A stretch of DNA of 64,000 nucleotides from a virus. The translations under genes were made by a program, and so were the position numbers. Position 1 is the first letter of the stretch. Each line of letters begins with the position of its first letter. Under the pieces are notes generated by a model that saw only the letters and a program-made list of their open reading frames with translations, made no database searches and was not told the origin of the DNA. The DNA lies in the IMG/VR virus record IMGVR_UViG_3300011429_000001, positions 15,962 through 79,961 of that record; one strand, written 5' to 3'. Below, piece by piece: positions 1,713 through 30,804 of the stretch.

Positions 1713-1715
1713 TGG

Positions 1716-3478: not shown

Positions 3479-3479
3479 T

Positions 3480-4107: not shown

Positions 4108-4108
4108 C

Positions 4109-7565: not shown

Positions 7566-7626
7566 CGTTTTTATCCTTGGCGTTGGCGGTTAGGTCCCTC
7601 GTCGGTTCCACCGCGCTCGCCTGCTG

Positions 7627-7938: not shown

Positions 7939-7960
7939 TCCTCCTCACCTCCCTTCGCTT

Positions 7961-8641: not shown

Positions 8642-8652
8642 TGCTGCTGCTC

Positions 8653-11658: not shown

Positions 11659-11686
11659 AATTGTGCCTTTCCGTTGTCACCAGCCG

Positions 11687-13885: not shown

Positions 13886-13889
13886 GCGC

Positions 13890-14258
13890 TCACAGCGCTT
13901 TCAGGATCGCGGGACGCGAGAGGGAAAGGTGGGTGCACTTCTGACGGAGGCCGTTCAGGTAGTTGTCGTAGGCTTCGAGCGCGCTCTGCGTGCCGCCACC
14001 AGCGTATTGGATACGGAGCTTCGAGACGACCTTCTCGACGATACCGCCGGTCGACGCCATCCAGAACGCCATCGCGACGCTTCCGGCTTGCGCCGCCGCG
14101 CAGTACTTCGCGGCCTCGGCCGACGCGCCGTGCGCTTGGACCTCGACGAGGAGCGCCGCGATCGTCGCGTCGGTAACGGCCTCGTCGGTCGGATCGGTAT
14201 CTCCGATGAGGAGGCGGACCCAGTCCTTATCGGTCGGCAGCGACGGGTCGAAGCTCAC
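13890..14258 (-). CDS. Head-tail adaptor protein
   Basis: DWVRLLIGDTD...VTDATI pattern typical of adaptors; position after capsid. Confidence 0.75.
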   Translation of the reverse strand: MSFDPSLPTDKDWVRLLIGDTDPTDEAVTDATIAALLVEVQAHGASAEAAKYCAAAQAGSVAMAFWMASTGGIVEKVVSKLRIQYAGGGTQSALEAYDNYLNGLRQKCTHLSLSRPAILKAL

Positions 14259-14503
14259 GGTCGGCTACCTCCGCGCATCTGCGCCGTACGCGGCTCGTCG
14301 GTACGAATCAGTTCGACCGTCTTACCGCTATCGCCCATTACGTAGGCCATTCCGCCCGCAGGGATGTCGACGTTCTTCGTCGTGCCGTCCTTCAGCTTCA
14401 TTACGATCAGCTTTCCGGTCGGACGCGGCGCGACTTCGTACTCGGCGCACTCGTGCATCTTATGGCCGCGGACGTTCGGGAGCATCACCTTGATGGAAAA
14501 CAT
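14255..14503 (-). CDS. Hypothetical protein
   Basis: 82 aa coupled ORF. Confidence 0.65.
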   Translation of the reverse strand: MFSIKVMLPNVRGHKMHECAEYEVAPRPTGKLIVMKLKDGTTKNVDIPAGGMAYVMGDSGKTVELIRTDEPRTAQMRGGSRP

Positions 14504-14510
14504 CGACGGC

Positions 14511-14954
14511 CTACTTCCGTTTGCCAGCGGTCTTTTTCTTCGCCGTCTTTTTGGACTCGCGCGGCTTCGGCGTCTGCTCGTTCCCGCTCTTCGTCGGCGC
14601 GGCCGGTGGTGCAGCCGGAGGCGGCGGCGGCGGTACTGGCGCCGGTACCGCGGGCGGCGCGGGTGCGACGGGTTCGACCGGCGTAGGCGGCTCCGCGTCG
14701 GCCGCTGGCTCGGGCTCCTGCGTATTTACCGGCTGCGGGATCGGGAGCGGATTCATCTGCATCGAGAGGGCGCGCCCGGCGGCGATCTCTTCGGGCGTCG
14801 CGAGCCGGATCGACTCGTACTTCTCTTCCGCTTGTTCCAGAGAGAGCTCGATCAGGTCGCCGCGCTTTCGCGTGACAAGCGTGCCGCCCTTGCCCCTTGC
14901 GTCGCCGCCCTCGAAGCGTGCGAATTTGCCGAACTCAATAACGTATATGGGCAT
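14511..14954 (-). CDS. Pro/Ala-rich hypothetical protein downstream of the capsid gene
   Basis: AAGGAG RBS; PAPPAVPAPVPPPPPP linker; Lys-rich tail. Confidence 0.7.
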   Translation of the reverse strand: MPIYVIEFGKFARFEGGDARGKGGTLVTRKRGDLIELSLEQAEEKYESIRLATPEEIAAGRALSMQMNPLPIPQPVNTQEPEPAADAEPPTPVEPVAPAPPAVPAPVPPPPPPAAPPAAPTKSGNEQTPKPRESKKTAKKKTAGKRK

Positions 14955-14983
14955 GGGCTGCTACTCCTTCTATGTGGGAAACG

Positions 14984-15021
14984 GACCCGCGGGCGACGAT
15001 GGATTCGCGCGCCCGCGGGTC
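14984..15021 (-). terminator. Strong hairpin after the major capsid gene (terminator/attenuator candidate)
   Basis: 12-bp perfect inverted repeat GACCCGCGGGCG/CGCCCGCGGGTC with 14-nt loop; only a short U tract (CGTTTCCC). Confidence 0.5.
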
Positions 15022-15041
15022 GGTTCTTACGACGTCGAGAT

Positions 15042-16064
15042 CTAGACCGTGTTACCGGTCACGATGCCCGACTGGTCGGTGTAGGTCGTCTTCACGCGCG
15101 GGATAATGCACGCGAGAACGATCCAGTTCATCCCGAGACCGCCGTCCTGATCCCACGAAATAACCGTGGGCTCCTGACCGACGACGAGATCGATAACGTC
15201 GCTCGTGCGCTGCACGAGGACGGTGCGGTTCGCCGGGAGCATATCGGCCGAGCGGACGCGGAGCGTCTGGCCGCCGAACGACATCTGCTCCAGACGCTGA
15301 CGGATGGTCGTCGGGAACGTCGTGACGCCGTCCGTCCAGTTGCGGTTCAGGATCAGGTCGTAGGCCGTGTTCACGTAGAGCGTGTACGGGCCGAACTTCC
15401 TGTCGCCGACCGCGAGCGCGACCATCGCGAGAACGTCGTCGACGATCTCTTGACCGGTCTTGCCCGCCGCGTTCCACGCCTCGCCGCCCGCGTACTGATA
15501 CGCGTTGACGTTCGGCGCGTTCAGCAAGCCCGGGACCGAGCTGCCGAAGACCGGCGTCGGGATGCCGTTGATCGCGGCGTCTTCGATCGCCTCGTTCACG
15601 CGGCGCGTCGCGACCTCGATGAGCGTCGTGTCGAGCGGAACGCCGCCGCCACGCTGGCTCGCCGAGAGGGTGCGGATGCCGAGCTCGAAGCTGTCCCACG
15701 TCAGGTAGACGGGGAGGATCTTCGCACGTCGGTCAACGATGAAGTTCTCGCCGCGGGCGCGAGGCTCCATCGTGCGCTTCGCGCCACCGGCCTCGTTCTG
15801 CTCGTCCCACTGCACCTGCGTGGTGCCCCAGAACGACTGGCCGATGTCGTACGTGAGTCCGTCGCTCATCAAATCGGCGACGACGGAGAGTCGATCGAGA
15901 CCGACCTTGAGGACGGTATCGTCGATCAACTTCTGCGCGTTCTCCGGCAGTGGACGCAAGGCGCGGAACTGCTGGACCGTGAGCTTGCCCTCCACCAGCA
16001 GGCGAAGCGCGGGAGGCGCCCCTGCGGGGAGCGGCTGTCCGATGCTTACAAGGTTCCTCGACAT
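15042..16064 (-). CDS. Major capsid protein, HK97 fold, encapsulin/Linocin-M18-like
   Basis: PLDTTLIEVATRRVNEAIEDAAING...GLLNAP...FGPYTLYV; AGGAGG RBS. Confidence 0.9.
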   Translation of the reverse strand: MSRNLVSIGQPLPAGAPPALRLLVEGKLTVQQFRALRPLPENAQKLIDDTVLKVGLDRLSVVADLMSDGLTYDIGQSFWGTTQVQWDEQNEAGGAKRTMEPRARGENFIVDRRAKILPVYLTWDSFELGIRTLSASQRGGGVPLDTTLIEVATRRVNEAIEDAAINGIPTPVFGSSVPGLLNAPNVNAYQYAGGEAWNAAGKTGQEIVDDVLAMVALAVGDRKFGPYTLYVNTAYDLILNRNWTDGVTTFPTTIRQRLEQMSFGGQTLRVRSADMLPANRTVLVQRTSDVIDLVVGQEPTVISWDQDGGLGMNWIVLACIIPRVKTTYTDQSGIVTGNTV

Positions 16065-16072: not shown

Positions 16073-16498
16073 CTAAACGGCCTCGACGCGGATACGCGCG
16101 TCGCCGGTGGTGGCGTTCTTGGCTTCGATGGCTCGCGCGAGCGGCACGCCTGCGGCCAGCGCGCGGAGCTTACCCGCACCGGCTGATTCGAGCACGGCAC
16201 CGTCGGCGACGTTCTGACCGGACGCCAGCCACGCGAGGCCGGTCGATCCCGCCGGGAACACGCCTGCCCAGAGCAGGTCGTTTGCCGCGTAGGTATCGTC
16301 GATGGTCTTGTTCATCTCCGGCGCGTCGAGCGCGAGAGTGAGCGGTCCCGCCGCCGCCGCCGGGTGGAAGCCGTAGGCGCCGCCGCTGCGCGCGACGGCC
16401 ATGCCGGGCGTCAACGCGACCGAGGTCGCGATGTCGTTGACGCGGACGATGTTGCCCGCGAGGTGGATTACGTTTGCCGCGTAGTGGGTGATGGCCAT
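16073..16498 (-). CDS. Capsid decoration/cement protein
   Basis: LTPGMAV...GQNVADGAVLESAGAGKL...ARAIEA; between protease and capsid genes. Confidence 0.75.
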   Translation of the reverse strand: MAITHYAANVIHLAGNIVRVNDIATSVALTPGMAVARSGGAYGFHPAAAAGPLTLALDAPEMNKTIDDTYAANDLLWAGVFPAGSTGLAWLASGQNVADGAVLESAGAGKLRALAAGVPLARAIEAKNATTGDARIRVEAV

Positions 16499-16524: not shown

Positions 16525-18228
16525 CTAAGCCTGCGCTCCGTTGCGCTTCGCGACAGCCATCGACCACGGCTTCGGCGCTTCGGCGACCTGCGCCGGTTCG
16601 GTCGTCGCCGCGCGGTCGAGCGCCACGTAGTCGACCGACGCGGACTGCGCGGTCGTCAACTGGAGCAGCCCGGCGATGTCCTGGAGCTGTTCGAGCTCCA
16701 TCGTCTTGAGCCGCGCTTCGCTGTACTGCGTCTGCGCGCCCTTCAGTTGGTTCACCAGCACGTTCTTCTGCGCGTTCCTCTGCGCCGTGTGCTGTGCGGC
16801 CATCGAGCGGAGCGTCTGGAGCTCCTCGGCCGGGACCTGGACCGTACCCGCCGCCGCTGCCGTTGCAGCTGCCGTTGCGGCCGCGACGCGTTCCGCTTCC
16901 GCCCGCTCTTCCGCGGTCGGCTCGGCCTGCGCCGTCGCGTGCGTTTCGCACGCGGTGAGTCGGTCCTCGCTCAACGTATCGAGGTAGGCGCGGTCGCCCT
17001 CGTCGAACGGAGAGCGCGGATTGCTGATGAGCGCCGTTACGCGCTCGGCCTTCGTAGGCATCGTCGCTCCTTCTGCGCCCTCGGCGCCTCTGGTACCATG
17101 GCCGCCGCACGTGCAAGCGTGGCGCGCCGTTGAATGTTCCGCTGCTGCTGCTGTAACGGGCACCCACTCGGTCCGTTGCCGGACCGGCGCGCGCTCGTCG
17201 GAGAGGGTCGCCTTGCCGTCGGCCGACAGCGTGTAGCTACGCTGATACGGCTTCAATGGCGTCGGACCGCCAGGGTCCGGGTCGATGAGATAGACGAACG
17301 TCTTGTCGTCCGGCACGACGCTGGTCACCGCGACGAAGTTCGGCTCGACGCGACGGAGCGCCTCGCAGAGGATGTCGCGGAGTTCCGAGTCGCTCATACC
17401 AGCGAGCGTTTCGAGCTGCGCGAGATCGTCGACGCCGACGGCGCCGAGGTAGGCAGCGAGCTTTGGATTCACGGTCGCCTCCGATGCCGCGGTGGCTTCT
17501 TCTTCCTCGGCCGCCGCTGCGGCGGCGCGCAGCGTAGCCGACTCGGCGACTTGCGAGCGCAGCGTTGCGGTCTCGCCGTCGGTGAGCGCGCGGAGCCCAG
17601 TTGGTTCAATGTTGTAGTGCCGAACGGCGTTACGCGGCGTGCCGCAGCCCATCTCGACGCTGCAGGCTCCGATAAGGCCCTCGCGGAGGAGCGCGACGTG
17701 GTCGGGAATGATCTCGCGCCAGATGCTACCGTAGGTCTCGCCGTTCGGCGCGACGCCTTCGATACGCTCGGCGACGACGAAGCAGCCGACGGAGATCTCG
17801 ATCGGCTCGTTCTCGCGGAGGCGGCGGAGGATCTCGGCGCCGTCGGCGACGACCGCGGCGCGACGCGGGTCGATCCAGACTTCGCCCTGTAGCCGCTTCG
17901 ACTCGTAGATCGCGTTGAAGATCTGGCCGAAGCTGTGGCGCTCCAACACCGCGGGCGTATTCGCGGAGACCATCGCGCCCTCTTCCGAGGGATGGTCTCC
18001 TGCCATCAGCACGCGGCCGTTCCATCCGGCCGGTGCGATCTGGAGCGTCTCGGCCGGAACGAACTCCGGCGTCTCAGCGTTGATCGGGAAGATGACCGCG
18101 TCGCCGAGGAGCATTACGATCGGCGCGATGACGTGCTCGACGCCGAGCAGCGTGCCGAGACGGACTTCGGTCGTCGATACGGCGCCGACGAGCCGGATGC
18201 CGCGCAGTTCGCGATTTAGCGAGGTCAT
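16525..18228 (-). CDS. DUF2213-type prohead protease/scaffold
   Basis: HPSE...EISVG...IIPDHVALL...GACSVEMGCG; helical C-terminal scaffold. Confidence 0.85.
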   Translation of the reverse strand: MTSLNRELRGIRLVGAVSTTEVRLGTLLGVEHVIAPIVMLLGDAVIFPINAETPEFVPAETLQIAPAGWNGRVLMAGDHPSEEGAMVSANTPAVLERHSFGQIFNAIYESKRLQGEVWIDPRRAAVVADGAEILRRLRENEPIEISVGCFVVAERIEGVAPNGETYGSIWREIIPDHVALLREGLIGACSVEMGCGTPRNAVRHYNIEPTGLRALTDGETATLRSQVAESATLRAAAAAAEEEEATAASEATVNPKLAAYLGAVGVDDLAQLETLAGMSDSELRDILCEALRRVEPNFVAVTSVVPDDKTFVYLIDPDPGGPTPLKPYQRSYTLSADGKATLSDERAPVRQRTEWVPVTAAAAEHSTARHACTCGGHGTRGAEGAEGATMPTKAERVTALISNPRSPFDEGDRAYLDTLSEDRLTACETHATAQAEPTAEERAEAERVAAATAAATAAAAGTVQVPAEELQTLRSMAAQHTAQRNAQKNVLVNQLKGAQTQYSEARLKTMELEQLQDIAGLLQLTTAQSASVDYVALDRAATTEPAQVAEAPKPWSMAVAKRNGAQA

Positions 18229-18312: not shown

Positions 18313-18561
18313 CTACGGCTTGCGGATTACCTGCCGACCAGGCGTCGAGATACTCACGCTGACGCGGCCGACGAAGCCGTCCGCGACGAACTCGCGAATT
18401 TGGTCGAGGGAGATGGCGAGCTCGTAGGTGTTCCAGTCGTTTCCGCACTTGCAGACGTGGTGCCGCTTATGCGCGCCGACGCTCGGGACCGGTCGGCTAT
18501 CGGTAACGCGGCCTCGTCGACCGCACTTTAAGCAGAGTTTCGGATTCGCTGGGCGGCTCAT
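18313..18561 (-). CDS. NrdR/Ogr-like zinc-ribbon protein
   Basis: CLKCG...VTDSR...KRHHVCKCGNDWNTYE; ATGA overlap with the MuF stop. Confidence 0.7.
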   Translation of the reverse strand: MSRPANPKLCLKCGRRGRVTDSRPVPSVGAHKRHHVCKCGNDWNTYELAISLDQIREFVADGFVGRVSVSISTPGRQVIRKP

Positions 18562-19268
18562 CGTCGACGCTCCCGCGGCGCGATGGCGAGGACGATCGAG
18601 CAGCGACAATTCGGATGCGCTGGCGGCGCCTTCAGCGGGCCGTTACGACTCGGGAAGGTCGCGTCCATCGGCACTGTAACGCCGTCGAGCGGCCGACAGA
18701 CGGGGCACGTGCGCTCGTCGCGCGCGGTCGACCACCGCTTCTGTTCCGTGCCGCGGAGGAGCCCGTCGCGGACCGCCTGCTCCCATTGTAGAAGCTGGCC
18801 CGCGTTACTCGCCGCGATCGTTTCCGTCCGCGCAATGAGGAGCGCGCGTTGTCGGAGCTGGCGCTCGGAGTATCGCTTCAGCGTCGCCTGCATCCGTTCT
18901 GGCGTGAGGCCGCCGGGCGGCACCTTCAAGACGCCGCGCGGCGCGCCAGGGATCTTCACGCTGACCGCGCGGCCGGTCTGCGTCGCGCGCGCCGCGGCGT
19001 CGAGCAATCGCCGCCTCGCGTTGAGGACCGCGTCGACTTGGTCCGGCCGGAGCCCGACGATCTGTTTGATAATCCGCGACGCCTCGCGCGGTGCGATACC
19101 TTCCTCGAACGCGCGGACGATGGCGCGGCGGATCCCTTCGCGCGTCTCGGCCGTCACCGACGTTACGAGCTCCGCGCTGTGGTTCCTCGCCCACTCGATG
19201 GCTTCCGGCATCGTGCGGTCGAAGGCCATCAGGCACGCTTGTCCAGCGGCCGTTCGGAGTTCGATCAC
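18558..19268 (-). CDS. MuF/SPP1 gp7-like head morphogenesis protein (C-terminal part)
   Basis: LIARTET...KRWSTARDERTCPVCRPLDG...PPAHPNCRC. Confidence 0.9.
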   Translation of the reverse strand: MIELRTAAGQACLMAFDRTMPEAIEWARNHSAELVTSVTAETREGIRRAIVRAFEEGIAPREASRIIKQIVGLRPDQVDAVLNARRRLLDAAARATQTGRAVSVKIPGAPRGVLKVPPGGLTPERMQATLKRYSERQLRQRALLIARTETIAASNAGQLLQWEQAVRDGLLRGTEQKRWSTARDERTCPVCRPLDGVTVPMDATFPSRNGPLKAPPAHPNCRCSIVLAIAPRERRR

Positions 19269-20609: not shown

Positions 20610-21391
20610 CGCAGCCACTCCATAAACATCCCGCCGTCGTCGCTCCGAACGACGACCGCGAAGATCCGATCGTGTCCGGCGGCCCACGCGCTCGCGGCCC
20701 GGACGTCGCCGTCGAGGATGACGCCCTGTTCGTTGACGACGATCGGCGGGACGGGGAGATTCGAGCGATAGCGGACGACGAGCTCGGAGTCGCCGCTCAT
20801 CACGCCGCCGCTCCCGGCCGACGGCTTGAGGTCCGCGATGTAGAGATGCTTGACCTGCGCGCCGGTCGAGTCGAAGCGCGCGACCGCGGCGGCCTCGCGG
20901 AGCGACTGCTCGACCATATCGGCGCGCGGAAGAATGTCGACCGGGCGCCGCAGCGGCGTCGTATCGAGCGCCCGTCGGATGTCGGCCGTCATCGCCACGG
21001 AGTCGTTCCCGATCATACGCCTGACGGCTTGCTCGCTGGCTTCGGCCGTTACCTGAGCCGCCGCGTCGGCTGCAGGGCGCGTGCGCGCGAGCTGCTCGGC
21101 CGGGCTCGTCGTCGGTCGAACGGCGCAGCGAGTCGCGTCGGCGGTATCGGACGCGACGTCGAGGAGCCGCTCGTCGAGCGGCTCGCGCGCGAGGGTGCGG
21201 AGATCGGCATCCTCGACGGCGTGTAGCGCGATGGCGAGCGCCCGGGCTCGGCTCCCGGATTGAATCGCCGACGAGAGCGCGCTCTCGCTGACGCGACCGA
21301 CGCCGCGACGGAGGGCGCCCTCGACGGCGACCGTTAACCGATTAACGTGCCGGTCGGCGACGTTGCGGACCGTGTTCGCTGTCGAGGCCAT
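20597..21391 (-). CDS. MuF-N-like region fused to a ParB/Srx-like domain
   Basis: C-terminal LPVPPIVVNEQGVILDGDVRAASAWAAG resembles the ParB PIvV...liDGhHR motif. Confidence 0.55.
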   Translation of the reverse strand: MASTANTVRNVADRHVNRLTVAVEGALRRGVGRVSESALSSAIQSGSRARALAIALHAVEDADLRTLAREPLDERLLDVASDTADATRCAVRPTTSPAEQLARTRPAADAAAQVTAEASEQAVRRMIGNDSVAMTADIRRALDTTPLRRPVDILPRADMVEQSLREAAAVARFDSTGAQVKHLYIADLKPSAGSGGVMSGDSELVVRYRSNLPVPPIVVNEQGVILDGDVRAASAWAAGHDRIFAVVVRSDDGGMFMEWLRWNN

Positions 21392-21588
21392 CAGGCGTCG
21401 TCCCAGTCTTCCTCGTCGGAAACGTCGCCGAAGCCCTCGCCGTCGAGCGCGTCGTCATCGTCGACGTCGACTTCGAGATCCGAGGCGCATTCTTGGCAGT
21501 CTCCGCTCTCGCTGCACGTTTCGCATCCGTCGCCCTCGCACTCGGGACAGATGCCGGAGTCGTCGCAATTATCGCAGTCTGAGGCCAT
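21391..21588 (-). CDS. Acidic Cys-rich zinc-finger miniprotein
   Basis: Four CxxC pairs, then a D/E-rich tail; GGAG RBS. Confidence 0.65.
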   Translation of the reverse strand: MASDCDNCDDSGICPECEGDGCETCSESGDCQECASDLEVDVDDDDALDGEGFGDVSDEEDWDDA

Positions 21589-21591: not shown

Positions 21592-22233
21592 TTACTCCTC
21601 CTCGTCGTCTTCGTCTTCGAGCAACAGTTCGGCGGCGGCCATCAGTAGGAGGTCGTCGGTCCACCCGGCGTTCTCGGAGTCCATGCTGAGCGGCTCGACT
21701 TCGCGAAGGATGGCGAGCATCGCCGGTCGCAAGGCATCGTGCTCGGCGAGCAGCGAGATCCGCGCGACGGCGAGCGCCGCGGCTTCCGTGTCCGGGATGC
21801 TCCCGGCGGCGAACAGCAACACCCGGAGCTCCGCGGCGCCGGTCGCCTCCGGTGCCTCGACCTCGATGTCCAGCGTCGCCCTCGTAACGACGCCGGAGTC
21901 GGATCGCATCGTCGGCGGGAGGAGCGCGACGTCGGACGTCGCCGCGGCGTGCACGAACGCCTGCGCGGCCGAGGCGAGCTTTAGTGCGGTCAGCGAGAGG
22001 AGGCGCGCGCGGACCCGACCGAACGCGTAAACCTCGACGGCCGGGAGCTCGGCGTCCATCGAGAGCGCGACGACCTGCTTCCGTGGCTTCGGCTTCGGCC
22101 GCCGCCGCTCGCGTTCCCGCTCCTGCTCCTTCTCTCGACGCTGGAACTCTTTGAACCAGTCGAGCACCACGCTGCCGTGGTGTGGCTGCGGAGGCGTCTC
22201 GCCGCCGTAGAAGGAGTGGTAGTCGAGGAGCAC
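21592..22233 (-). CDS. Hypothetical protein
   Basis: 213 aa, acidic C-terminus DDLLLMAAAELLLEDEDDEEE. Confidence 0.65.
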   Translation of the reverse strand: MLLDYHSFYGGETPPQPHHGSVVLDWFKEFQRREKEQERERERRRPKPKPRKQVVALSMDAELPAVEVYAFGRVRARLLSLTALKLASAAQAFVHAAATSDVALLPPTMRSDSGVVTRATLDIEVEAPEATGAAELRVLLFAAGSIPDTEAAALAVARISLLAEHDALRPAMLAILREVEPLSMDSENAGWTDDLLLMAAAELLLEDEDDEEE

Positions 22234-22237: not shown

Positions 22238-22519
22238 CTACTCGAAACGAACCGTCAGCACTTTCGCGGTGACGCTTCGATTCGTCGCGAACGTATTCAC
22301 CTGAGCGGCCGTCGCGGCAGACTCGACCTTCGCGGAGACGGTGATGACGTACGCGCCGCCGGGCGCCTGCCCGATCGACGGCGTAAGCCCGGCATCAATG
22401 AGGTCGGCGACGAGGAGCTTCGCGGTGGCCTTGCTCATTCCGCCCTGCGCCGTAGCGATCTGCGACGGTGCGGCGAACAGAAGCAGCAGGACGGCGATTA
22501 CGACGCGTGTCTTGGTCAT
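22238..22519 (-). CDS. Secreted protein (Sec signal peptide)
   Basis: MTKTRVVIAVLLLLFAAPSQIATA/QGG. Confidence 0.75.
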   Translation of the reverse strand: MTKTRVVIAVLLLLFAAPSQIATAQGGMSKATAKLLVADLIDAGLTPSIGQAPGGAYVITVSAKVESAATAAQVNTFATNRSVTAKVLTVRFE

Positions 22520-22524
22520 TGGGT

Positions 22525-23187
22525 CTACTCCACTGTGAACATGATGCTGATCGAACCGAACGCGAGGCCGCCTGCGCCCGGCGCGCTAACCGAGACGCTA
22601 ACGCCGTTGGCGGTGCCTGCTGAGATGACGATAGGCTTAGTGCCGCCGTTAAGTCCGTAGACTTGACACTGCTGCGGCTGGCCCGGAACGTCGGCGGTGC
22701 CTGCCGCGAGTTCGCCAACCTGAAATCCCCACTGGTCTAGCGTCGCTCCGATAGTGCCGAGGGTCGGCGTGCGCCGGGCGATGCCGCCGAAGTTGGAGTC
22801 GGCCGGATCCAGCTTGCTCACCGCGTCCGCGCCTGTCCCCTCGGCCGTCAGTGTCGTGCCGCCGGAGCCAGCGGTCGAGCGCCTGTTTACAGTCACGGTA
22901 ACGCCAGCTGCGGCCGTAGCGTTGGTCACGCCGACGCAGATGCGGTGTATGTACACCGTTCCGACCGCCGGTGCCTCCAGCTGCATCGAATACAGCGCGG
23001 TCGTAACGAGCGCGCCACTAGTAGCGATGTAGGTGGCCTTCGAGCTCTGTCCCTGCGCGACCTCCATCGCCTTCTTGGTGTTGACGTTGGCGAGGTCGGC
23101 GCTCGCGCCTCCCTTTATCGGGAGGCCCTGCGCCTGCGCAGCGGTTGCGCATGCGACGACGAGTGCGGCGATCAGTATTCGTTTCAT
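22525..23187 (-). CDS. Secreted beta-rich protein
   Basis: MKRILIAALVVACATAAQA/QGL. Confidence 0.78.
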   Translation of the reverse strand: MKRILIAALVVACATAAQAQGLPIKGGASADLANVNTKKAMEVAQGQSSKATYIATSGALVTTALYSMQLEAPAVGTVYIHRICVGVTNATAAAGVTVTVNRRSTAGSGGTTLTAEGTGADAVSKLDPADSNFGGIARRTPTLGTIGATLDQWGFQVGELAAGTADVPGQPQQCQVYGLNGGTKPIVISAGTANGVSVSVSAPGAGGLAFGSISIMFTVE

Positions 23188-23191
23188 TGTA

Positions 23192-23686
23192 TCAGGCTCC
23201 TGTACAGTGGAAGCGGTGAGTGCCGGTGCTCCCGAAAGGATTAAAGACCATCAGGTCGAAGCCGGTGCCGACGACGCGGTTAGCGATGGTCACATCGAGA
23301 GCGGCGACCGCGACCTGCTCGGGCGTCAGGCCATCGTCGGTGGTGCCGAACGGGCCGCATACGATCTTGCTCGTGCCTGTCACCCACGCCTGCCCGGTAA
23401 CGGTCGTCGAATAGAAGCCGCTGCCGCCGGTCATCGCCAGCGAGACCTCCACGGTGTTCGCGCTACCTCCGGCGCCGACGTTGATCGTGACGACGCCAGC
23501 GCTTGCGGAGCACGTGACGCCGGTACCGGTGCAATCGACGGCGCGCGTCGCGCGGCCGACGTTCGAGCCTTCGTCGCGGAAGAGCAATGGAGGAGTAGAG
23601 ACCGCGCCGCCTGGGTTCGAGCCAGACTGCGCCGCCGCCGGAACCGAGAGCAATACGAGGATGAGGAACGCGAGCGCCTGTCTCAC
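23192..23686 (-). CDS. Secreted protein with a phage-fibre-like motif
   Basis: GTG start; MRQALAFLILVLLSVPAAA/QSG; FRDEGSNVG...TGTGVTC. Confidence 0.75.
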   Translation of the reverse strand: MRQALAFLILVLLSVPAAAQSGSNPGGAVSTPPLLFRDEGSNVGRATRAVDCTGTGVTCSASAGVVTINVGAGGSANTVEVSLAMTGGSGFYSTTVTGQAWVTGTSKIVCGPFGTTDDGLTPEQVAVAALDVTIANRVVGTGFDLMVFNPFGSTGTHRFHCTGA

Positions 23687-26613
23687 TTGACTACCTCCGT
23701 GACGCGAGCGGCGCCGGTCGAATCGGCCGACCAGATGCAACTGATAAGGCCAGTGTAGCCGAACGGTACCGTCAGCGATTGATCCGTGAAGAGTTTATAC
23801 GTGAACGATGTCGTACTCGCCGTCGCTCCGAACTTCACGTAAAGGTCGGATGTCGAATCGTTCGTAACGACCGCACCGAGCCGGTTCGAGTTCGACGAGA
23901 GGCAGGTCGTCGACGTCGCTTGATCGTTTACCGACGTTACGGCTGGCGAGCTCGCGCGCTCGGCCTGCACGACTTGCGTGAAGCCGGGCCACGGCTGCCC
24001 TTTCCCGGACGTCGCGTAGACGTCGAACGCGCTGCCGCTGACCCTGTGGATCTTGATGCTCTCGAAGCCAGCGCACGCGACGAGGTAGTCGCCGCTCGTA
24101 GTGATGCCCTCACCGACTCCCTGAACGAAGGTCGACAGGTTAATCACCGGCAACGGAACCGCGCCGCCGTTCGGCAACGTGCCTGTAATGTCCATCTCTT
24201 GGTCGGTTAGTTCGAGGCTTACGAGGCACGTCGAGTTGTTCACCGTCGATACCGGCAACGTCACGTCGGCGAGGGACGTCACCTGCCCGGTCGAATAAGC
24301 GGCGCTCGCCTCTCGAACGATCAGACCCCAGTCGCTCGGCCCAGGATGCGCGTCGAGGAGCGTCGCCGTCTCTCCGTTGAGTTCGATCGCGTTAATGCCG
24401 ATCGTTCCTTGCACTGCCTGCGATCCGCTCGGGATATTGCGCACGATGAGACCGCGCTCGGTACCCGAAGGGTTTGCTGTCGCTGATGCGATAGCGTTGC
24501 CGCTTCCGTCCTGCGTGCGCGACTGCGCGATCTGGTTACCGTTCGTTTGGTTCGCGCTCGTCGCGGCACCTGTCGGCAGAGGCAGCGACGCCGCGCTGAT
24601 CGGCTGCGTTCCGCTCGGGATATTGCGCGTAATTAATCCGCGCTCCGTCCCTGCTGGTGCCGTCGTCGCCGACTCGATCTGATTGCCTGCGCCGTCCAGC
24701 GTGCGCGTAGACCATTGCCCTGACTGCGAGACGCCGACTATCGACTCGATGTTACTGATGGCGACTGCGCCTGCGACCTTCGCCAGCACCACGTTCGGAA
24801 GCGTATTCGCCGTCGCGGTGATCGTAAGATTCCCAGTCGTCGTGTTCAACAACTCGACGCCGTAGTCTGTAACTCCTGCACCGCCGACGACGACGTACGG
24901 CGTGGTGGACATCTCGTCGAACGGAAGCTCGAACACCGCCCGGTCGCCGCCGACGTCGTAGATCTGAGAGCCGGAGTTCGGCGTCGACCACGTCGCGCCG
25001 TTGTCGGTGCTGTAGACCGCCTTCACGGCGCCGTCCCAACCTCCGGACTGCGCGAACGTGAACGCCGCGTTGGCCCAATTAAAGTAGCGCGTCGAGACCG
25101 TGAACCGCTGGCCGTTCGTCGTCAGCGCGGCCGACGTCGCGCGGTAGGACTGGCCCGCCTCACGCGTGACGAGGCCGCCCGTCGCGGCGCCGGTCGACTT
25201 CTGATCCGTCTCGACTTGCGCCGTGTCGGTCCCGTCGGTCGTGCGCGCGAGCTGCGTGCCGTTCGTTTGGTTGGCCGACGTCGACGCGCCCGTCGGGAGC
25301 GGAAGCGAAGCGGCGCTGATCGGCGACGTGACGCCAGACGGATCGACAGGCTGTCGACCTCCGACGAGCGCGGGCGTCTTCGCGTCGATGCTCGCGAGGC
25401 TGGCGATCTCGCTGGCTTGATTCGCGGCGGTAGAGGCGCCGGTCGGTAACGGCAGCGAGGCGACCGTGACGCTACCGTCCCACATATCCCAGTTCGTTCC
25501 GGCGGCATCCCACTTCATCACGAAGCTCTGGATCTTCGTCAGCTCGGGGTTCGGCGTGTTGTTGATCGGCGCCGCCGCCGTCGGGAGCCCGACCTGCCGC
25601 ACTGTGAGTCCGTAGTTGGTGTCGCCCGGTTCGCCGTTCTGGATTACAGCTTCTTGGTTAAACGCATCGGTCAGGGCGACGAACCACCGAGACGACTGGT
25701 CTCCGACTCCTTGGCGGACGGCGCCGTCCCAGCGGTTCCATGTATTCGAGCTGAATGGATCCCAGACCATCGGGAACGTCTGAATCTTCGTCAGCGTCGG
25801 GTTCGGCGCGGCGTCGGCGAGCGGCGCCGCGGTTGGGAAGCCGACTTGCCGCACGAACAACCCGACGTCGGTGCCGTCGACCTGCGGCGTCGCGCCGTCG
25901 GCGCGGACCGGGCTCCAGATGAATACGCCGCCGCCGGTGTCGACGAGACCACCGATCGGGAACAGCGGCATCTTCGGGTCGCCGATGTCGTAGGAGTCGT
26001 TGCTCTTGACGCCGCTGTGAATCTGCAACCCCCGCGCCACGTTGTCGCTTAGCACCGAGCCGATCGCGTTACCGGCCGAGTCCTGCGTGCGCGACTGCGC
26101 GATCTGGTTCCCGTTCGTCTGGTTCGCGGACGTCGCGGCACCGGTCGGCAGCGGTAAGGCGCTCGCGGTAACGGCGAGCGACGGATTCACAACGGTGACG
26201 TTCGACGCCGCGCCTCCGGAGATCGCCGACGGGAACGTCACCGGCGGAGAGCCGACCATCGCGGCGTTGACGGTTCCCGAGGTGAACGCCGTCGTGTGTG
26301 CCTTGACCTTCACGTATCCGGCCGACGCGATGATGAAGGTATCGTTCGCCGTCGTCGACGTCACGACCGTCTGCGTGCTCACGCGGAGGACGTTTGGGAT
26401 CGCAAAGTAGTCCGTGCCGTTCGTCGTCGCCGAGAACTGCACCGTAGCCGCCCACGTTCCAGTCAGTTGGATGCTGACCGTGCCGTGGCCGTTGAGGTCG
26501 AGGACGAGCTCCTGCGCGTTCGCGGTGAAGGTGCCGGTCGTCGAGACGTCCTGCGCGTAGAGCGGAGCCGCGAACGCGACGAGGATCGCGATGGTTACCA
26601 GTAGCCTCTTCAT
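23683..26613 (-). CDS. 976-aa secreted, repeat-containing fibre-like protein
   Basis: MKRLLVTIAILVAFAAPLYA/QDV; Ser/Thr/Gly-rich; C-terminal NDSTSDLYVKFGATASTTSFTYKL...ARVTE virion-type domain. Confidence 0.8.
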   Translation of the reverse strand: MKRLLVTIAILVAFAAPLYAQDVSTTGTFTANAQELVLDLNGHGTVSIQLTGTWAATVQFSATTNGTDYFAIPNVLRVSTQTVVTSTTANDTFIIASAGYVKVKAHTTAFTSGTVNAAMVGSPPVTFPSAISGGAASNVTVVNPSLAVTASALPLPTGAATSANQTNGNQIAQSRTQDSAGNAIGSVLSDNVARGLQIHSGVKSNDSYDIGDPKMPLFPIGGLVDTGGGVFIWSPVRADGATPQVDGTDVGLFVRQVGFPTAAPLADAAPNPTLTKIQTFPMVWDPFSSNTWNRWDGAVRQGVGDQSSRWFVALTDAFNQEAVIQNGEPGDTNYGLTVRQVGLPTAAAPINNTPNPELTKIQSFVMKWDAAGTNWDMWDGSVTVASLPLPTGASTAANQASEIASLASIDAKTPALVGGRQPVDPSGVTSPISAASLPLPTGASTSANQTNGTQLARTTDGTDTAQVETDQKSTGAATGGLVTREAGQSYRATSAALTTNGQRFTVSTRYFNWANAAFTFAQSGGWDGAVKAVYSTDNGATWSTPNSGSQIYDVGGDRAVFELPFDEMSTTPYVVVGGAGVTDYGVELLNTTTGNLTITATANTLPNVVLAKVAGAVAISNIESIVGVSQSGQWSTRTLDGAGNQIESATTAPAGTERGLITRNIPSGTQPISAASLPLPTGAATSANQTNGNQIAQSRTQDGSGNAIASATANPSGTERGLIVRNIPSGSQAVQGTIGINAIELNGETATLLDAHPGPSDWGLIVREASAAYSTGQVTSLADVTLPVSTVNNSTCLVSLELTDQEMDITGTLPNGGAVPLPVINLSTFVQGVGEGITTSGDYLVACAGFESIKIHRVSGSAFDVYATSGKGQPWPGFTQVVQAERASSPAVTSVNDQATSTTCLSSNSNRLGAVVTNDSTSDLYVKFGATASTTSFTYKLFTDQSLTVPFGYTGLISCIWSADSTGAARVTEVVK
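24520..26170 (-). repeat. Intragenic peptide repeats in the 976-aa protein
   Basis: Four copies of ASxLPLPTGA(A/S)T(S/A)ANQ, two of PTAAP..PNPxLTKIQxFxMxWD..WDG, several GLxVR/GLxTR motifs; degenerate at the DNA level. Confidence 0.85.
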
Positions 26614-27113
26614 TATTGCCTCCCGACGAACTGGACTCTCAGACCGGTCTGCCCGCTATTACAGCTAATGACGATCCCGTTCGAGAGCGACGCGCCGCCG
26701 AAGTTCAACGGCAGGACGGCCTTCGCGCTGACCGGCATCGCCGTGATGTATGGGTTCGCGTCGCCGTCGGCGAGCGTGAAGTGGCGCAACTGCGAGCTGT
26801 CGTTCAGGAGCAGTACGGTGCGGACCGACGTCGTCTGCGCCGTTACGGGAGTCGGCGTGTCGGTGACGTCGAGGATGCCGCTGTCGTAGTTTGGGTCGCT
26901 CGCGCCGCCGAGCGGGCGGACGACGATGCCGAGATCGGTCGGGTCCGGATCGTCTCCGCGGACCTTCGCGATCTTCGACCAGTCCTCCGGATCGCCGATG
27001 CCGATCACCTGCCGCTCGACGAGCGTCGTGTCCGGTTGCTGGAGCGCGACGTTGTCGATCTGCTTGGTGGGTGTAGTCGGCTCGCCTACGCCGACGCGCC
27101 CGGGCGTTATCAC
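26613..27113 (-). CDS. Putative virion structural protein
   Basis: PDPTDLGIVVRP motif shared with the 976-aa protein; no signal peptide. Confidence 0.65.
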   Translation of the reverse strand: MITPGRVGVGEPTTPTKQIDNVALQQPDTTLVERQVIGIGDPEDWSKIAKVRGDDPDPTDLGIVVRPLGGASDPNYDSGILDVTDTPTPVTAQTTSVRTVLLLNDSSQLRHFTLADGDANPYITAMPVSAKAVLPLNFGGASLSNGIVISCNSGQTGLRVQFVGRQ

Positions 27114-27532
27114 TGGCTAGCCGCCACCTTCGGCATGCGGAGGACGCAGATGTCGAGCGTGACCTCGGTGTGCTGGCCGATGATGCTCGCGCGGACCGTC
27201 ATCGCGCCGTCCTGATTCGTCGTGATATCGCCGTCGTAGACCGGCGTCGTCCCGTCGGCGCGATAGAGCCGGAACCACTTCGGCTTACCCTCCGCCTGTG
27301 CGTCCCGGTCCGGCACGACGGCGTTCGCCGTCGCGACGCCGTCGACTGGCGGCATGAACGCGGGACGCGCGAACTGAAGTTTGGCGAGGAGCGTCGCCGT
27401 GCGCGGGATCGCGGCGTCTCCGGTCGACGGCCGCGGGCCGTCGAAGATGCACGCGTAACCGCCGTCGAGGAGCTCGCAGATGGCGGCGCAGGCGGCGTTG
27501 GCCGCCAACGTCGAGAGTGTGATCTTGCTCAT
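27110..27532 (-). CDS. Putative virion structural protein
   Basis: LDGGYACIFDGPRP...LLAKL...GKPKWFRLYRADG...DGDI pattern seen in phage structural genes. Confidence 0.65.
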   Translation of the reverse strand: MSKITLSTLAANAACAAICELLDGGYACIFDGPRPSTGDAAIPRTATLLAKLQFARPAFMPPVDGVATANAVVPDRDAQAEGKPKWFRLYRADGTTPVYDGDITTNQDGAMTVRASIIGQHTEVTLDICVLRMPKVAASQ

Positions 27533-29112
27533 TCGTCGACCTCCTCGACTTGGATGCTGTCGGCGCGACCGCGCGGGTCACGACGAATGGTCAGCGAGCG
27601 GCGGCCCTTCTTCTTCGCCTTCGGTGGCCGAGCGCGTTCGGCGGCCAGTTGGAGCTTCGCCTCCCGCAACCGCGCCGCGAGTTGCTGCGCGTCGGCGACG
27701 TCCGGCATCGCGACGAGCTCGTCTTCTTCCAGTGGGTCGTAGTCGAGGATGTTGTCGCGGATCTCGTTCGTCGTTATGATCTGCTCGCCCTGATCCGCGT
27801 TCGCCTTCGCGGCCTTCGCCGCGAGGTCGAGGCGCTCCGAGAGGTCGAGGTCCTGCACGTCTGGCCAGCGCACCTCGTAGCTCTCGGGCGTCGGCGGGAG
27901 TTGCCCGAGGAGCTGGAGGCGCTCGACGAGCGGCCGCAGGATGACCGACTCGGCGAACTGTCGGCGCCGGTCGCGGATGTTCTGCCCCCAGTTGCCGCGG
28001 TCCTGCGAGCTCGCGAGGTCTCCCATCTCGCTGCCCATGAAGATGCGCTTTGGGATGCCGTATGGCGTCACGATCAACGAGATGAGCGCATCGATCTGCC
28101 GGTCGAACTGCGCGACGTCGCTGCTGCCGACCTCGTCGAGCTTCACGCCGGAGAGGCGGACCCATCGACGAAGGCCGTGCACCAGCTTGTCGATCTCCTC
28201 CTCGATGAGGGCCTCGTCGCCGGTCTTCAGCACCGTGCCCGGGTCGAGGGCGGCGGCGAGCATCGGCTGGACGCGGCGCCAGAACGCCTCGGACCCGGCG
28301 CCCGCGACCTTTTCGAGATCGTCGAGCCAGTTCCAGACGCTCGCGAGCATCGGCTCGCCCCACTCGTCCTCCTCGACCGCCTCGTCGGCGATGTGGATGA
28401 CGCGATTCCAGTGAACGAACTGCGAGCCCGACGTGCCGTTCGACTTCAACAGCTTCGTAAACTGGTAGCGACTCGGTTGCCCGAACCGCGGCGAGAGCCG
28501 GTCGTTGTCGAGGTCGCCGTCCTGCACCTTGACGCGGAGCTCGCTGAACTGCTTGATGTAGGCGACGCTCCCGGGCTTCGTCTTCTTCGCCTCGCCGCCG
28601 AGCGCGCCAGGGTAGCCGAGGAGGAGGACCGAGAAGCGACCGAGCTGCGACAGGATGTCGCCCTTCCGCATCCGGTCCCACGCGCGCGTCCGCGCCGCGA
28701 ACTCGATCCACGCGGCCTCGAACGGCGTCACGATGTCGACGTTGTCGTCCTGGACGAGGTCTGCGCCGGAGCGCCACGTCGCGTTCGGGAGCGCGTTCAC
28801 CAAGCGGCGCGCGACGCCGTTCCGGCGGTAGCGATCCCAGTAGAGCTCCGGCGTGATCGTCCTCGTATAGCCGAGCGCGGTGTAGTAATCGCGCTTGCCC
28901 TCGAACCCGAAGCCGTGGAGGCTCGCGAACGAGAGCCGGTCGTGGATCGCGCCGAGTTGCTTCAGGACTGCTTGCGCTTCGGCGGTCGAGAACCGCGGAT
29001 CCTTGTTCCCCTTCGGCACGACCTCGATCGCGGTGGTGGTGGCGGACGCTGCTGCTGCGGGTATCGTCGCGCGCGTTGTCGTGCGGCGACGCTGCGTCGT
29101 CCTCTTGGCCAT
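27529..29112 (-). CDS. Portal protein (DUF1073 type)
   Basis: YRRNGVARRLV...FIHWNRVIH-like HWNRVIH...GIPKRIFMGSEMGDLASSQD; immediately after TerL. Confidence 0.9.
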   Translation of the reverse strand: MAKRTTQRRRTTTRATIPAAAASATTTAIEVVPKGNKDPRFSTAEAQAVLKQLGAIHDRLSFASLHGFGFEGKRDYYTALGYTRTITPELYWDRYRRNGVARRLVNALPNATWRSGADLVQDDNVDIVTPFEAAWIEFAARTRAWDRMRKGDILSQLGRFSVLLLGYPGALGGEAKKTKPGSVAYIKQFSELRVKVQDGDLDNDRLSPRFGQPSRYQFTKLLKSNGTSGSQFVHWNRVIHIADEAVEEDEWGEPMLASVWNWLDDLEKVAGAGSEAFWRRVQPMLAAALDPGTVLKTGDEALIEEEIDKLVHGLRRWVRLSGVKLDEVGSSDVAQFDRQIDALISLIVTPYGIPKRIFMGSEMGDLASSQDRGNWGQNIRDRRRQFAESVILRPLVERLQLLGQLPPTPESYEVRWPDVQDLDLSERLDLAAKAAKANADQGEQIITTNEIRDNILDYDPLEEDELVAMPDVADAQQLAARLREAKLQLAAERARPPKAKKKGRRSLTIRRDPRGRADSIQVEEVDE

Positions 29113-29118: not shown

Positions 29119-30804
29119 TTACCTTCTCGGTTGCGCCTTCGCGTTGCGCGCGCCGCCCCAGACACCGGCGACCGGCTTCTCGGGCTCGACCTCGCGCTCT
29201 TCTATGCCCGCATATATTACCCCCTCGCCGCGATCCGGCGAGCGTCCGATGCGTTTCTTGATATCTTCCTTCGACTCGACGCGGATGCCGCGGACGGTCA
29301 TCTCGAAGCGCGCGGCCGTTAGGTCGGCGCGCATCTGCGGGTCCGGCGGGAGCGCGACGTTGTGACCCTTCGACGGGTCGAGGAGCTCGCGCATACCCCA
29401 GTGCCACTTCGCGCGTTTGTTGACGAAGCGGATCTCGCCGGTCGAGTCCGTCGACTCCGTACCGTGCCCGCCGTGTAGCCCGATGACCTTCTTGTAGCCG
29501 AGGCCGACCAGCGAGTCCTTCGTCGACGCGCCCTCGGAGTCGGAGTCGATCTGAACGCGGACGTCCTTGTTCGGGACGTGCGTCGCGACGTGCTGCGCGC
29601 CCTCGGGTCCGGTCCTCATCCCGGTCGACCGCTGCGCGACCGGCTCGGCGAACCACGGGCCGTATCGCTTCACGATGACGAACTCGTCGCCGCCGCCCCA
29701 CGACGGGTCGATGCCGACCTGCGTCAGCGGCCAGCTTCCGGCGCCGTCCTCGGTCCACCGTGCCTGCGCCTTCAGGACCCAGTCCGTCGGAATTACCTGA
29801 CGCGGGTGATCTTGAATCGACGCGCCGAAGTTACCTGAGCCCAAATTCCGGAACCCTCCCGAGAGGCCGCCGAGCACCCTCGCGTAGCCGGTCCGCATGT
29901 ATGTCGGGTTGTCCTCTACCGACGATGGGATGAAGGTCCGACTCCGCGGCCAGGCGATTCTACCGCCGCACTCGGGACACTTCATCGGGTTACTCGTCAC
30001 GTCGTGCTTGCACTTCGGGTTGTCGCCGCCGAAGACGATCGCCTGCGGTCGACCGGCGCCGAACTTCGGACCCGGGATCTCGATGTCGACGTCGTTGTCG
30101 TCTGTGACGAACCAGCGGAGCTCGCCCGGCCCGGCAGGGTTCGGATGTCGAAGGTCGAGCCACGGTGCCCAGTAGCGGATGACCCACTCGCCCTCGGACG
30201 TCAGCGGCGGGTTGCCGGTACCGACGACGCGCGTGCGCTGTCCCTCGCGCGACGTGCGCAGCCACGCGATGAGGAGTCGATACGCGCCCTCTGGAATCTC
30301 TGGGATCTCGTCGAAGGCCTTCAGGTCGTGCGGTCGGCCGGACCACTTCAACCACTCGGAGATCGTCGCGCCGGTCTGACCGAACTCCAACTTGCGAGCG
30401 CCGGGCAGCCGCTCGAACATGTGCTTGTTCTGGTTGTAGCGGTCGCGGAGGCCGACCATCTCTTGCGCGACCGCGATGAGGCCCTCGGCGCCGGAGAACT
30501 GCGTGAACTCGCGGCGGAAGATGATCGAGTTCTTGTGCTTCGTCATCGCGAGGCCGAGCGCGAGCTGCGACTTGCCGCCGCCCGGGCCGCCGCCGAAGAA
30601 GAGCTCGTCGGCGAACGACTCGATCGCGAGCTCCTGAGGCGAGAGCACGCGGCCGTCCGGCATGTCGAAGCCGCGGCCCGGTTGTGCGGCGAGCGGCGTC
30701 CAGATCGGCGCAGCGTCGACGGCCGACGCGCCCGCGTCTTCGAGCTCTTGGATCGCCGCGCGCACCGCTTCGTGGAGCGGCGCCGCCGCTTGTCGTCTCG
30801 CCAT
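29119..30804 (-). CDS. Terminase large subunit
   Basis: Walker A FFGGGPGGGKS, Walker B KAFDEI, GTGNPP, nuclease GIDPSWGGGD and SPDRGE. Confidence 0.95.
   Translation of the reverse strand: MARRQAAAPLHEAVRAAIQELEDAGASAVDAAPIWTPLAAQPGRGFDMPDGRVLSPQELAIESFADELFFGGGPGGGKSQLALGLAMTKHKNSIIFRREFTQFSGAEGLIAVAQEMVGLRDRYNQNKHMFERLPGARKLEFGQTGATISEWLKWSGRPHDLKAFDEIPEIPEGAYRLLIAWLRTSREGQRTRVVGTGNPPLTSEGEWVIRYWAPWLDLRHPNPAGPGELRWFVTDDNDVDIEIPGPKFGAGRPQAIVFGGDNPKCKHDVTSNPMKCPECGGRIAWPRSRTFIPSSVEDNPTYMRTGYARVLGGLSGGFRNLGSGNFGASIQDHPRQVIPTDWVLKAQARWTEDGAGSWPLTQVGIDPSWGGGDEFVIVKRYGPWFAEPVAQRSTGMRTGPEGAQHVATHVPNKDVRVQIDSDSEGASTKDSLVGLGYKKVIGLHGGHGTESTDSTGEIRFVNKRAKWHWGMRELLDPSKGHNVALPPDPQMRADLTAARFEMTVRGIRVESKEDIKKRIGRSPDRGEGVIYAGIEEREVEPEKPVAGVWGGARNAKAQPRR

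Follow-up and report, generated by a model that had tools for sequence, protein, structure and literature searches.

The 64,000-nucleotide stretch analysed here, referred to as the window, comprises bases 15962-79961 of the complete 100,629-bp IMG/VR record IMGVR_UViG_3300011429_000001, a tailed phage genome with direct terminal repeats in which the minus strand carries all the real genes. The phage has a guanine-cytosine (GC) content of 65% and encodes an HK97-type capsid, a portal, a terminase and a tape-measure protein. Between its portal and MuF genes lie four adjacent open reading frames (22238-26613, minus strand), the products of which are P0001 to P0004, P0004 being read first. Each begins with a leader of the Sec type, as the initial annotation of this DNA had reported; the pattern of n-, h- and c-regions is found in all four, small residues occupy -3 and -1, and the predicted +1 residue is Gln in four proteins out of four. 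By the textbook, all virion parts of a tailed phage are made in the cytoplasm, normally without signal peptides, and the few exported phage proteins that are known are small exclusion or lysis factors.

The leader of P0001 consists of MTKTR, 12 hydrophobic residues and PSQIATA, that of P0002 of MKR, 13 hydrophobic residues and AQA, that of P0003 of MR, 13 such residues and PAAA, and that of P0004 of MKR, 13 again and PLYA, and each would be cut before a Q. The h-regions are 12-13 uncharged residues long and their best 8- to 10-residue Kyte-Doolittle windows score 3.2-3.8. Leader detection, here and below, is a crude hydrophobicity measure joined to the -3/-1 rule, and cleavage sites are inferred from rules and comparison. 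For P0004 the rule would also permit a cut after AFA and before A, five residues ahead of the LYA site, but the latter is preferred because orthologues conserve an xA/QD junction. All four cleavage motifs are of type I and not type II, with no lipobox, and in the AlphaFold2 (AF2) models of P0002 and P0003 the leader forms a separate helix followed by a low-confidence linker. The start of the P0003 gene had to be corrected to the GTG at 23686 from the TTG at 23740 that was first listed; the GTG overlaps the stop of the 976-residue P0004 gene as GTGA, after a GGAGG, the orthologues in the related phages L002 and L005 begin at the same GTGA-type overlap, and the ESM Atlas entry is the 164-residue form letter for letter. 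Elsewhere in the 100.6-kb genome a signal-peptide-like start is found in one gene only, a lipoprotein-like one near the endolysin, apart from which plain membrane helices occur in a few small proteins. With four leader genes adjacent out of about 125 (p about 1e-5), the clustering is more than chance would give.

Conservation of the signal in homologues, a point raised in the initial annotation, bears this out, in that a leader is kept as a property across hundreds of homologues by the same rule-based detection. In the sister phages (L002/L003, L004 and L005, from three other metagenomes), which are syntenic from terminase to capsid, leaders are kept on the corresponding genes, and the leader sequences diverge more than the mature N-termini. 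In the P0002 family (P0124-P0242) 117 of 119 homologues (98%) are leader-like, the mature part having a mean column identity of 56% and the first 20 or so residues being the most variable part. The P0003 family amounts to 440 clusters at E-values up to 1e-3 among 1.8 billion proteins, and 117 of the 150 representatives analysed (P0243-P0392) are leader-like (78%), with a mature part 32% identical per column. Leaders are seen in 30% of 119 relatives of P0004, the first domain of which sets in at residues 3-8 in leaderless relatives and directly after an AQ/D site in the others. One P0004 homologue, P0077, keeps a VLAQ/D junction preceded by a charged and not a hydrophobic segment, and looks like a case of a decayed signal peptide.

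The cysteines follow the leaders. Even, non-zero counts are found in 114 of 116 leader-bearing P0002 relatives and in 106 of 116 leader-bearing P0003 relatives, the P0002 pair Cys84/Cys174 is invariant, and the P0003 pair Cys110/Cys161 is kept in 115 and 112 of 116 leader-bearing members as against 12 and 13 of 18 leaderless ones, while P0004 relatives have a cysteine density about twice as high with a leader as without (p 2e-4), all of these being counts from related sequences and not independent events. Cysteine pairs and even counts that track the leader match what export into an oxidising compartment predicts. Judged from the sequences, genuine export of the four proteins is very probable. 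A class of short uncharged leaders occurs in 26 of the 150 P0003 family members (about a sixth) and in 10 of the 119 of the P0002 family (a twelfth), loci L015-L018 included; these run to 10-13 residues, namely M, 8-11 hydrophobic residues, A/G/S and then Q, with no upstream start possible, and 25 of the 26 in the P0003 family go with even cysteine counts. Such leaders may be minimal signal peptides of some host group, or may serve another targeting route.

Searches of the four proteins and their neighbours against Pfam, PHROGs, NCBIfam and PDB sequences returned nothing significant for the four. P0003 (23192-23686, minus strand) is a short fibre protein of 164 residues from its GTG start, with a signal peptide at residues 1-19, a Gly linker, a knob and four cysteines. 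Its AF2 model (mean predicted local distance difference test score, pLDDT, 85) shows the leader, two beta hairpins, the glycine linker and a C-terminal sandwich, and the knob itself (residues 73-164; 23195-23470, minus strand) is modelled at pLDDT 93-98. The two hairpins bear the conserved mature N-terminal motif of the family, DEG...C.G.GVTC. Among the top 14 PDB matches of the knob (Z 6.1-8.3) 11 come from the extreme C-terminus of a tailspike, depolymerase or pyocin fibre and three are H-type lectins; LKA1 gp49 is matched at Z 8.3, K64-1 S2-4 at 7.9, AP22 gp54 at 7.6, the R1/R2 pyocin fibres at 6.2-6.9 and the H-type lectins at 6.3-7.2, and these, like all structure matches given here, hold at the level of the fold only. 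In the AlphaFold database the knob meets H-type lectin entries and Peptidase_S74 fibre entries, and across the family it terminates proteins of anything from 83 to 1045 residues. In fold the knob is tailspike-type and H-lectin-like, and it would bind glycans.

P0002 (220 residues; 22525-23187, minus strand) has its signal peptide at residues 1-19 and the Cys84/Cys174 pair, and is modelled by AF2 (mean pLDDT 82.5) as a flexible arm (20-46) followed by an eight-strand jelly roll (47-220). Folds of this kind are widespread, and the P0002 matches, at Z 7-9, are generic and at background level, taking in small plant-virus capsids, the HFTV1 turret, the KHP40 and BPP-1 cement proteins, XepA and the TNF family. 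Cement and decoration jelly rolls score Z 6.6-8.8, and the window has a decoration-like gene of its own at 16073-16498 (minus strand); among P0002 relatives a position near the capsid gene is seen only for a distant leaderless one, in L023/L024. In the AlphaFold database the P0002 fold is that of the C-terminal domain of baseplate-J-like, DUF1983 and Mtd-type proteins. A divergent P0002-type gene in two of the sister phages (L002:14293-15078 and L005:4165-4953) has a bipartite N-terminus made up, in order, of a conserved MIRFxIDP, a hydrophobic segment, a basic loop and a second leader-like segment, which would be either a two-helix membrane anchor or an autotransporter-like extended signal peptide. 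The smallest of the four, P0001 (93 residues; 22238-22519, minus strand), has a signal peptide at residues 1-24 and a mature part of 69 residues with no cysteine, and its orthologues are confined to the sister phages L004 (58% identity, E 2e-23) and L005, L002 having none.

P0004 (976 residues; 23683-26613, minus strand) is a giant mosaic fibre with a signal peptide (residues 1-20; 26554-26613, minus strand), four LPLPTGA repeats and four cysteines in the mature part. Of its three predicted beta-sandwich regions one is backed by structure search and two come from sequence only. The one so backed is the first mature domain (about residues 21-125; 26239-26553, minus strand), found in an Atlas structure search in which residues 18-124 match a viral cluster at a template-modelling score of 0.91 (by hit), 27% of it annotated as Pfam XepA. 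Orthologues of P0004 have 915-1269 residues and align over only 17-54% of the length. The conserved C-terminal domain (residues 888-976; 23686-23952, minus strand) holds NDSTSDLYVKFG and two cysteines, is the only part to match records of phages from Manatee Spring (45% identity), and is present in L002, L005, L006, L010 and L012. Comparison of P0004 with all other genes of the genome found no detectable shared sequence. The motifs that the initial annotation had quoted as fibre-like, namely RDEG...C.G.GVTC, the NDSTSDLYVKFG stretch and the LPLPTGA repeats, prove to be genuine family features.

The four genes belong to a coupled run that starts with the portal gene (27529-29112, minus strand; phrog_146, E 3e-50, with PF06381 in orthologues), which the gene of the large terminase subunit (29119-30804, minus strand) adjoins. 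Coupled to the portal gene is one for a 140-residue protein (27110-27532, minus strand) matching a PHROG of virion structural proteins (phrog_3758, E 5e-17) and kept in L002, L004 and L005. Next, immediately upstream of the giant fibre gene, stands gene X (166 residues; 26613-27113, minus strand), which has no signal peptide and the stop of which overlaps the P0004 start as TAATG. Homologues of gene X (phmmer E 8e-12 to 8e-102) stand ahead of the giant fibre gene in L002, L004, L005 and L006, the last an unrelated backbone, and searches of Pfam, PHROG and NCBIfam gave no match for gene X. A visual impression that gene X shares the C-terminal domain of P0004 was rejected (BLASTP E 76). On the far side follow genes for a 213-residue acidic protein, a 65-residue Cys-rich protein, a 264-residue protein and several small products, then the MuF-like head morphogenesis gene (18558-19268, minus strand; phrog_3517, E 7e-42), a protease or scaffold gene (16525-18228, minus strand), the decoration-like gene already mentioned and the major capsid gene (15042-16064, minus strand), and so the four lie between portal and MuF and upstream of the protease, decoration and capsid genes. 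Throughout the run stops and starts overlap or are 4-5 bases apart, a GGAG-type Shine-Dalgarno-like motif precedes each of the four starts, and a search for a promoter or terminator of their own, as a moron would have, found no site above chance. The tight coupling and the lack of such signals make the four genes part of the late head message. Their GC content at third codon positions is 0.77-0.83 compared to 0.83-0.90 in the neighbours, a gap too small to argue for recent transfer from codon composition. No deposited phage is a near match to the window at the DNA level, and the nearest cultured relatives of the portal, a Halorubrum virus and Brevundimonas phages, are about 33% identical.

Two of the genes downstream deserve a separate word. 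The 213-residue protein (21592-22233, minus strand), directly after the four, has a conserved N-terminus MLLDYHSFYGGETPPQPHH, a linker rich in Lys, Arg and Glu and an acidic tail; it is kept in the sister phages and matches no Pfam or PHROG family. The very acidic 65-residue protein (21391-21588, minus strand), two genes after the four, contains four CxxC units, CDNCDDSG, CPECEGDG, CETCSESG and CQEC, three of them trailed by xxxG, in a manner reminiscent of the DnaJ zinc-finger repeat, and is kept in L002 and L005 and replaced in L004. The phage also has a separate, leaderless tail set outside the window, which includes a Gp80-like fibre (PF23140) and a 945-residue TIG/Laminin_G_3 protein. In that tail and lysis region (L025, bases 1-15961 of the genome, with features at 11523-14809, 5065-5586 and 2304-2819) the Gp80-like fibre and the TIG/Laminin_G_3 protein are accompanied by a leaderless endolysin of the phage-lysozyme type and a lipoprotein-like gene of 171 residues, which may encode an outer-membrane spanin-type protein.

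Parts of this arrangement recur well beyond the sister phages. Hidden Markov model searches place a P0003-type gene (157 to 618 residues) directly upstream of a P0002-type gene in the window and in L006-L008, L010, L013-L020 and L022, that is, the pair is adjacent in 13 of 13 further loci, a count that covers every fetched locus with both genes detected and upstream sequence present. In L006 the cassette lies between capsid-side genes and an SU10-type adaptor, in L008 after such an adaptor, in L007 at the end of the late operon and in L010 (MW202637, Manatee Spring) between a putative endolysin gene, judged by eye, and genes for small membrane proteins. A conserved pair in unrelated backbones at differing operon positions shows the cassette to be mobile, and accordingly the four genes together with the leaderless gene X are a mobile late-gene cassette, widespread and previously undescribed. 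Accessory genes are swapped between the sister phages, L004 having in second place an unrelated leader-bearing gene of 159 residues, which was considered as a P0003 or P0002 relative and, showing no similarity, is a replaced gene. Ahead of the cassette in L010 (MW202637.1, 6936-9255) stand three further envelope-targeted genes, for a leader-bearing protein of 112 residues, a lipoprotein-like one of 489 residues and a lipoprotein-like one with an HExxH-type motif. Among 50,697 deposited phage records no cultured carrier of the P0002-P0004 families was found, the records with them being metagenome-assembled ones only.

Exported and leaderless versions of these proteins can be set against each other. 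The 135-kb contig L011 (50% GC) has five consecutive leader-bearing genes at 5504-14675, for a Collar-domain protein of 962 residues and then for products of 139, 1583 (the fibre), 153 and 150 residues, whereas the 58-kb contig L012 (65% GC) has at 8579-12663 a leaderless fibre and a leaderless next gene (37% identity, E 1e-11), with no head or tail genes nearby. The gene that follows in L011 and L012 is leaderless in both contigs (27% identity, E 7e-12). A distant P0002 relative of 182 residues, leaderless and Cys-free, is found in the podovirus-like contigs L023 (1255-1803) and L024 (2894-3442), two genes after a major head protein (phrog_212) and before a tail protein (phrog_394), and is possibly the cytoplasmic, virion-borne ancestor type. 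From the leaderless relatives in L012 and L023/L024 the cassette proteins appear to be exported versions of cytoplasmic phage protein types.

The Gln at +1 had been given special weight in the initial annotation, and an ordinary rule for signal-peptidase substrates of the host offers an explanation for it. The residue stands at +1 in all clear-cut orthologous leaders of L002, L004 and L005 and is the commonest +1 residue in the families, and since Asp, Ala and Gly are also found there it looks like an adaptation to the host and not something that the proteins need. Roughly 70% of the proteins cut by signal peptidase I in Bacteroidetes are left with an exposed Gln, and a glutaminyl cyclase facing the periplasm turns this into pyroglutamate (PMC5837995); in phages of Porphyromonas gingivalis five signal-peptide genes obey this Q-rule, read as an adaptation to the export and glutaminyl-cyclase machinery of the host (PMC10367356). 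The likeness to the present proteins is in the Gln at +1 of phage signal-peptide genes; those phages differ in being temperate, with a known host, and no fibre-like folds, cassette or cysteine pattern is described there. The genome was found to encode no glutaminyl cyclase, DsbA or signal peptidase, and a plant-type glutaminyl cyclase family was matched in the control genomes of Caulobacter and Deinococcus. The host would be bacterial and probably diderm, in keeping with the lysozyme-type endolysin and the lipoprotein gene. A pattern scan of 185,579 bacterial and archaeal genomes found no relative of the P0002 and P0003 families.

Known systems resemble the cassette in parts. XepA of the Bacillus subtilis element PBSX (PDB 6I56), an exported protein of late synthesis that particles do not contain (PMC6834076), is likewise a beta-sandwich protein of a phage element, is matched by the P0002 jelly roll (Z 8.2, root-mean-square deviation 2.9, 106 residues) and annotates part of the Atlas cluster of the first P0004 domain. 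It differs in having no signal peptide (its export is non-classical), a monoderm host and a place in a lysis cassette, where the present set comprises several genes with Sec leaders and cysteine pairs. By sequence the XepA family (PF27453) found no match in P0004, P0002 or 16 N-terminal domains of P0004 relatives, and one P0004 homologue, P0110, has a precomputed PF27453 hit. The mosaic adhesive trimer (MAT) fibres of Bdellovibrio bacteriovorus (PMC10769870) are likewise tail-fibre-like, mosaic, Sec-exported, tipped variably and used extracytoplasmically; these, however, are encoded by a bacterium and shown on its own surface, and the sole link to the cassette is a weak Foldseek row to Bd1399 (E 3e-3, template-modelling score <0.2). 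The order of P0003 and P0002, a fibre gene of variable length and then a small conserved partner, recalls lambda stf-tfa, T4 gp37-gp38 and Mu S-U, although these are cytoplasmic and leaderless and have no family match to the cassette in Pfam or PHROG.

Other precedents share the export and little else. T5 Llp, T1/phi80 Cor, P1 Sim and T4 Sp and RI carry export signals and have their site of action in the periplasm or outer membrane, but these phage proteins are products of small single genes, early or prophage-made, often lipoproteins and not fibre-like; a receptor-blocking lipoprotein in the manner of Llp or Cor was rejected for the cassette on account of the missing lipobox, the type I motifs and the position of the genes inside a coupled late operon. 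The pIII and pVIII of filamentous phages are virion proteins with Sec leaders, pIII being disulfide-bonded, yet those phages assemble at the membrane without lysis, in contrast to the tailed phage with an HK97-type capsid considered here. Spanins were likewise set aside, given no lipobox, all-beta folds and an endolysin more than 30 kb away, as was cargo of type IX secretion, which might have accounted for the conserved C-terminal domains, no C-terminal sorting domain (TIGR04183/PF18962 or type B) being found at E up to 1 in NCBIfam and up to 0.1 in Pfam. Literature searches turned up no description of tailed phages that export their tail fibres.

As the best explanation, though a tentative one, the cassette would encode an exported complex, complete in itself, that binds glycans and has its function away from the particle. 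Late co-expression with the portal and head genes is given by the observed coupling. The host Sec system would then export the four proteins, signal peptidase I would cut before the Gln, which may cyclise if the host has a glutaminyl cyclase, and folding with disulfide bonds would take place in the periplasm of a diderm host. If exported in this way the cassette proteins cannot join the cytoplasmic assembly line of heads and tails, and the complex might be at work in the host envelope during infection or, when lysis has set it free, on envelope debris and the surfaces nearby. A docking site specific to one backbone is argued against by termini that are conserved though backbones and insertion sites differ. 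A role off the particle is further favoured by the separate leaderless tail set that this phage already has, by the failure of P0004 to share anything detectable with other genes of the genome and by the precedent of XepA. The extracytoplasmic fibre-like set that the initial annotation proposed is borne out to this extent by the leaders, the cysteine pairs and folds typical of the virion periphery, and that it forms a single structure, is added to the virion or coats the cell would be conjecture. Its suggestion that the set might be the substrate of a glycosyltransferase island (3904-13547) found no support, there being cassette loci without a listed glycosyltransferase family within about 10 kb, as checked in precomputed Pfam lists of the loci, and glycosylation beforehand in the cytoplasm is argued against since Sec exports unfolded chains.

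Several observations pull the other way from a complex working off the particle. In fold, and in having leaderless relatives, the three larger proteins are like genuine virion parts, the giant fibre is a mosaic to the degree seen in receptor-binding proteins and the genes sit in a structural operon; virion-type folds, a mosaic fibre and such a context fit exported virion parts equally well. Gene X, leaderless and travelling with the giant fibre, could supply a docking partner carried on the virion. The diderm envelope on which periplasmic folding depends is inferred only from the short leaders and from a lipoprotein gene near a lysozyme-type endolysin, and the short uncharged leaders, seen in roughly one in six members of the P0003 family, depart from the textbook Sec signal. 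The last point also lends something to the idea that nothing is exported and that the hydrophobic N-termini are docking or oligomerisation helices of cytoplasmic virion fibres which mimic signal peptides, some phage capsid proteins being known false positives of signal-peptide predictors (PMC10367356). But a docking helix should be conserved in sequence, and it is the first 20 or so residues that are least conserved whilst charge, hydrophobicity and the -3/-1 pattern persist; cysteine pairs and even counts track the leader, and leaders are dispensable in that leaderless homologues begin with the first domain, all of which makes absence of export improbable. Exported virion parts are a more serious, if doubtful, prospect. 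Peripheral fibres, being head or neck fibres here and tail fibres in other backbones, would come into contact with the particle only on opening of the inner membrane by the holin or after lysis, docking perhaps via gene X or the conserved N-terminal motif. The coupling to the portal and head genes, the tailspike- and fibre-type knob, the jelly-roll matches to the HFTV1 turret and to the KHP40 and BPP-1 cement proteins, the leaderless Cys-free P0002 relative near a major head protein, the hypervariable mosaic giant fibre and the co-inheritance of gene X with it are all in keeping with this, as are leaderless relatives of P0004 and P0003, in which the corresponding first domain or motif is found at the extreme N-terminus, where an anchor would be expected. 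Yet no tailed phage is known to do so, docking after lysis has to compete with dilution, attachment sites are normally backbone-specific whereas the P0003/P0002 pair is conserved in unrelated backbones, and a leaderless tail-fibre set is already present in the phage.

Two functional variants concern what exported proteins would do. As lysis or release accessories they would help to breach or loosen the envelope, as proposed for XepA, and the MW202637 cassette between its putative endolysin gene (by eye) and small membrane-protein genes, the XepA-like beta sandwiches and the late expression are consistent with that. In the present phage, however, the endolysin and lipoprotein genes are more than 30 kb away, the four proteins lack a lipobox, a membrane anchor with coiled coil or an enzymatic domain, and a hypervariable fibre of 900-1700 residues is hard to reconcile with a generic role in lysis, so this is scarcely probable. 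Masking of receptors or exclusion of superinfecting phages, itself a form of action off the particle, would have the knobs bind the receptor of the phage itself or incoming phages, in the way of T5 Llp, Cor, P1 Sim or T4 Sp. Exported, lectin-like and hypervariable proteins would suit it, and their release with the progeny would spare the latter from adsorbing to debris. It seems unlikely nonetheless, in that known exclusion proteins are small and early or prophage-made where the cassette proteins are late and large, the absence of the families from the genomes scanned implies that they are not prophage-borne, P0004 shares no detectable domain with the tail proteins of its own phage, and a knob and jelly roll conserved across very different GC contents would hardly track variable receptors.

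The structural operons of many uncultured phages contain this mobile cassette, which is conserved and encodes large proteins of fibre and knob type that bear secretion leaders and disulfide signatures. That many uncultured tailed phages complete some of their machinery for host recognition or decoration after export from the cytoplasm, to be joined to the otherwise finished particle at holin opening or lysis, is a possibility we regard with some doubt; if true, tailed phages would have a second, extracytoplasmic assembly line, with Sec export and periplasmic disulfides. The Gln at +1 and the style of the leaders may help in assigning hosts. The cassette points either to an unrecognised periplasmic branch of virion assembly or to a new class of late exported glycan-binding complexes, and either outcome would alter how structural operons are annotated, in that a call of 'tail fibre' may not mean a virion protein.

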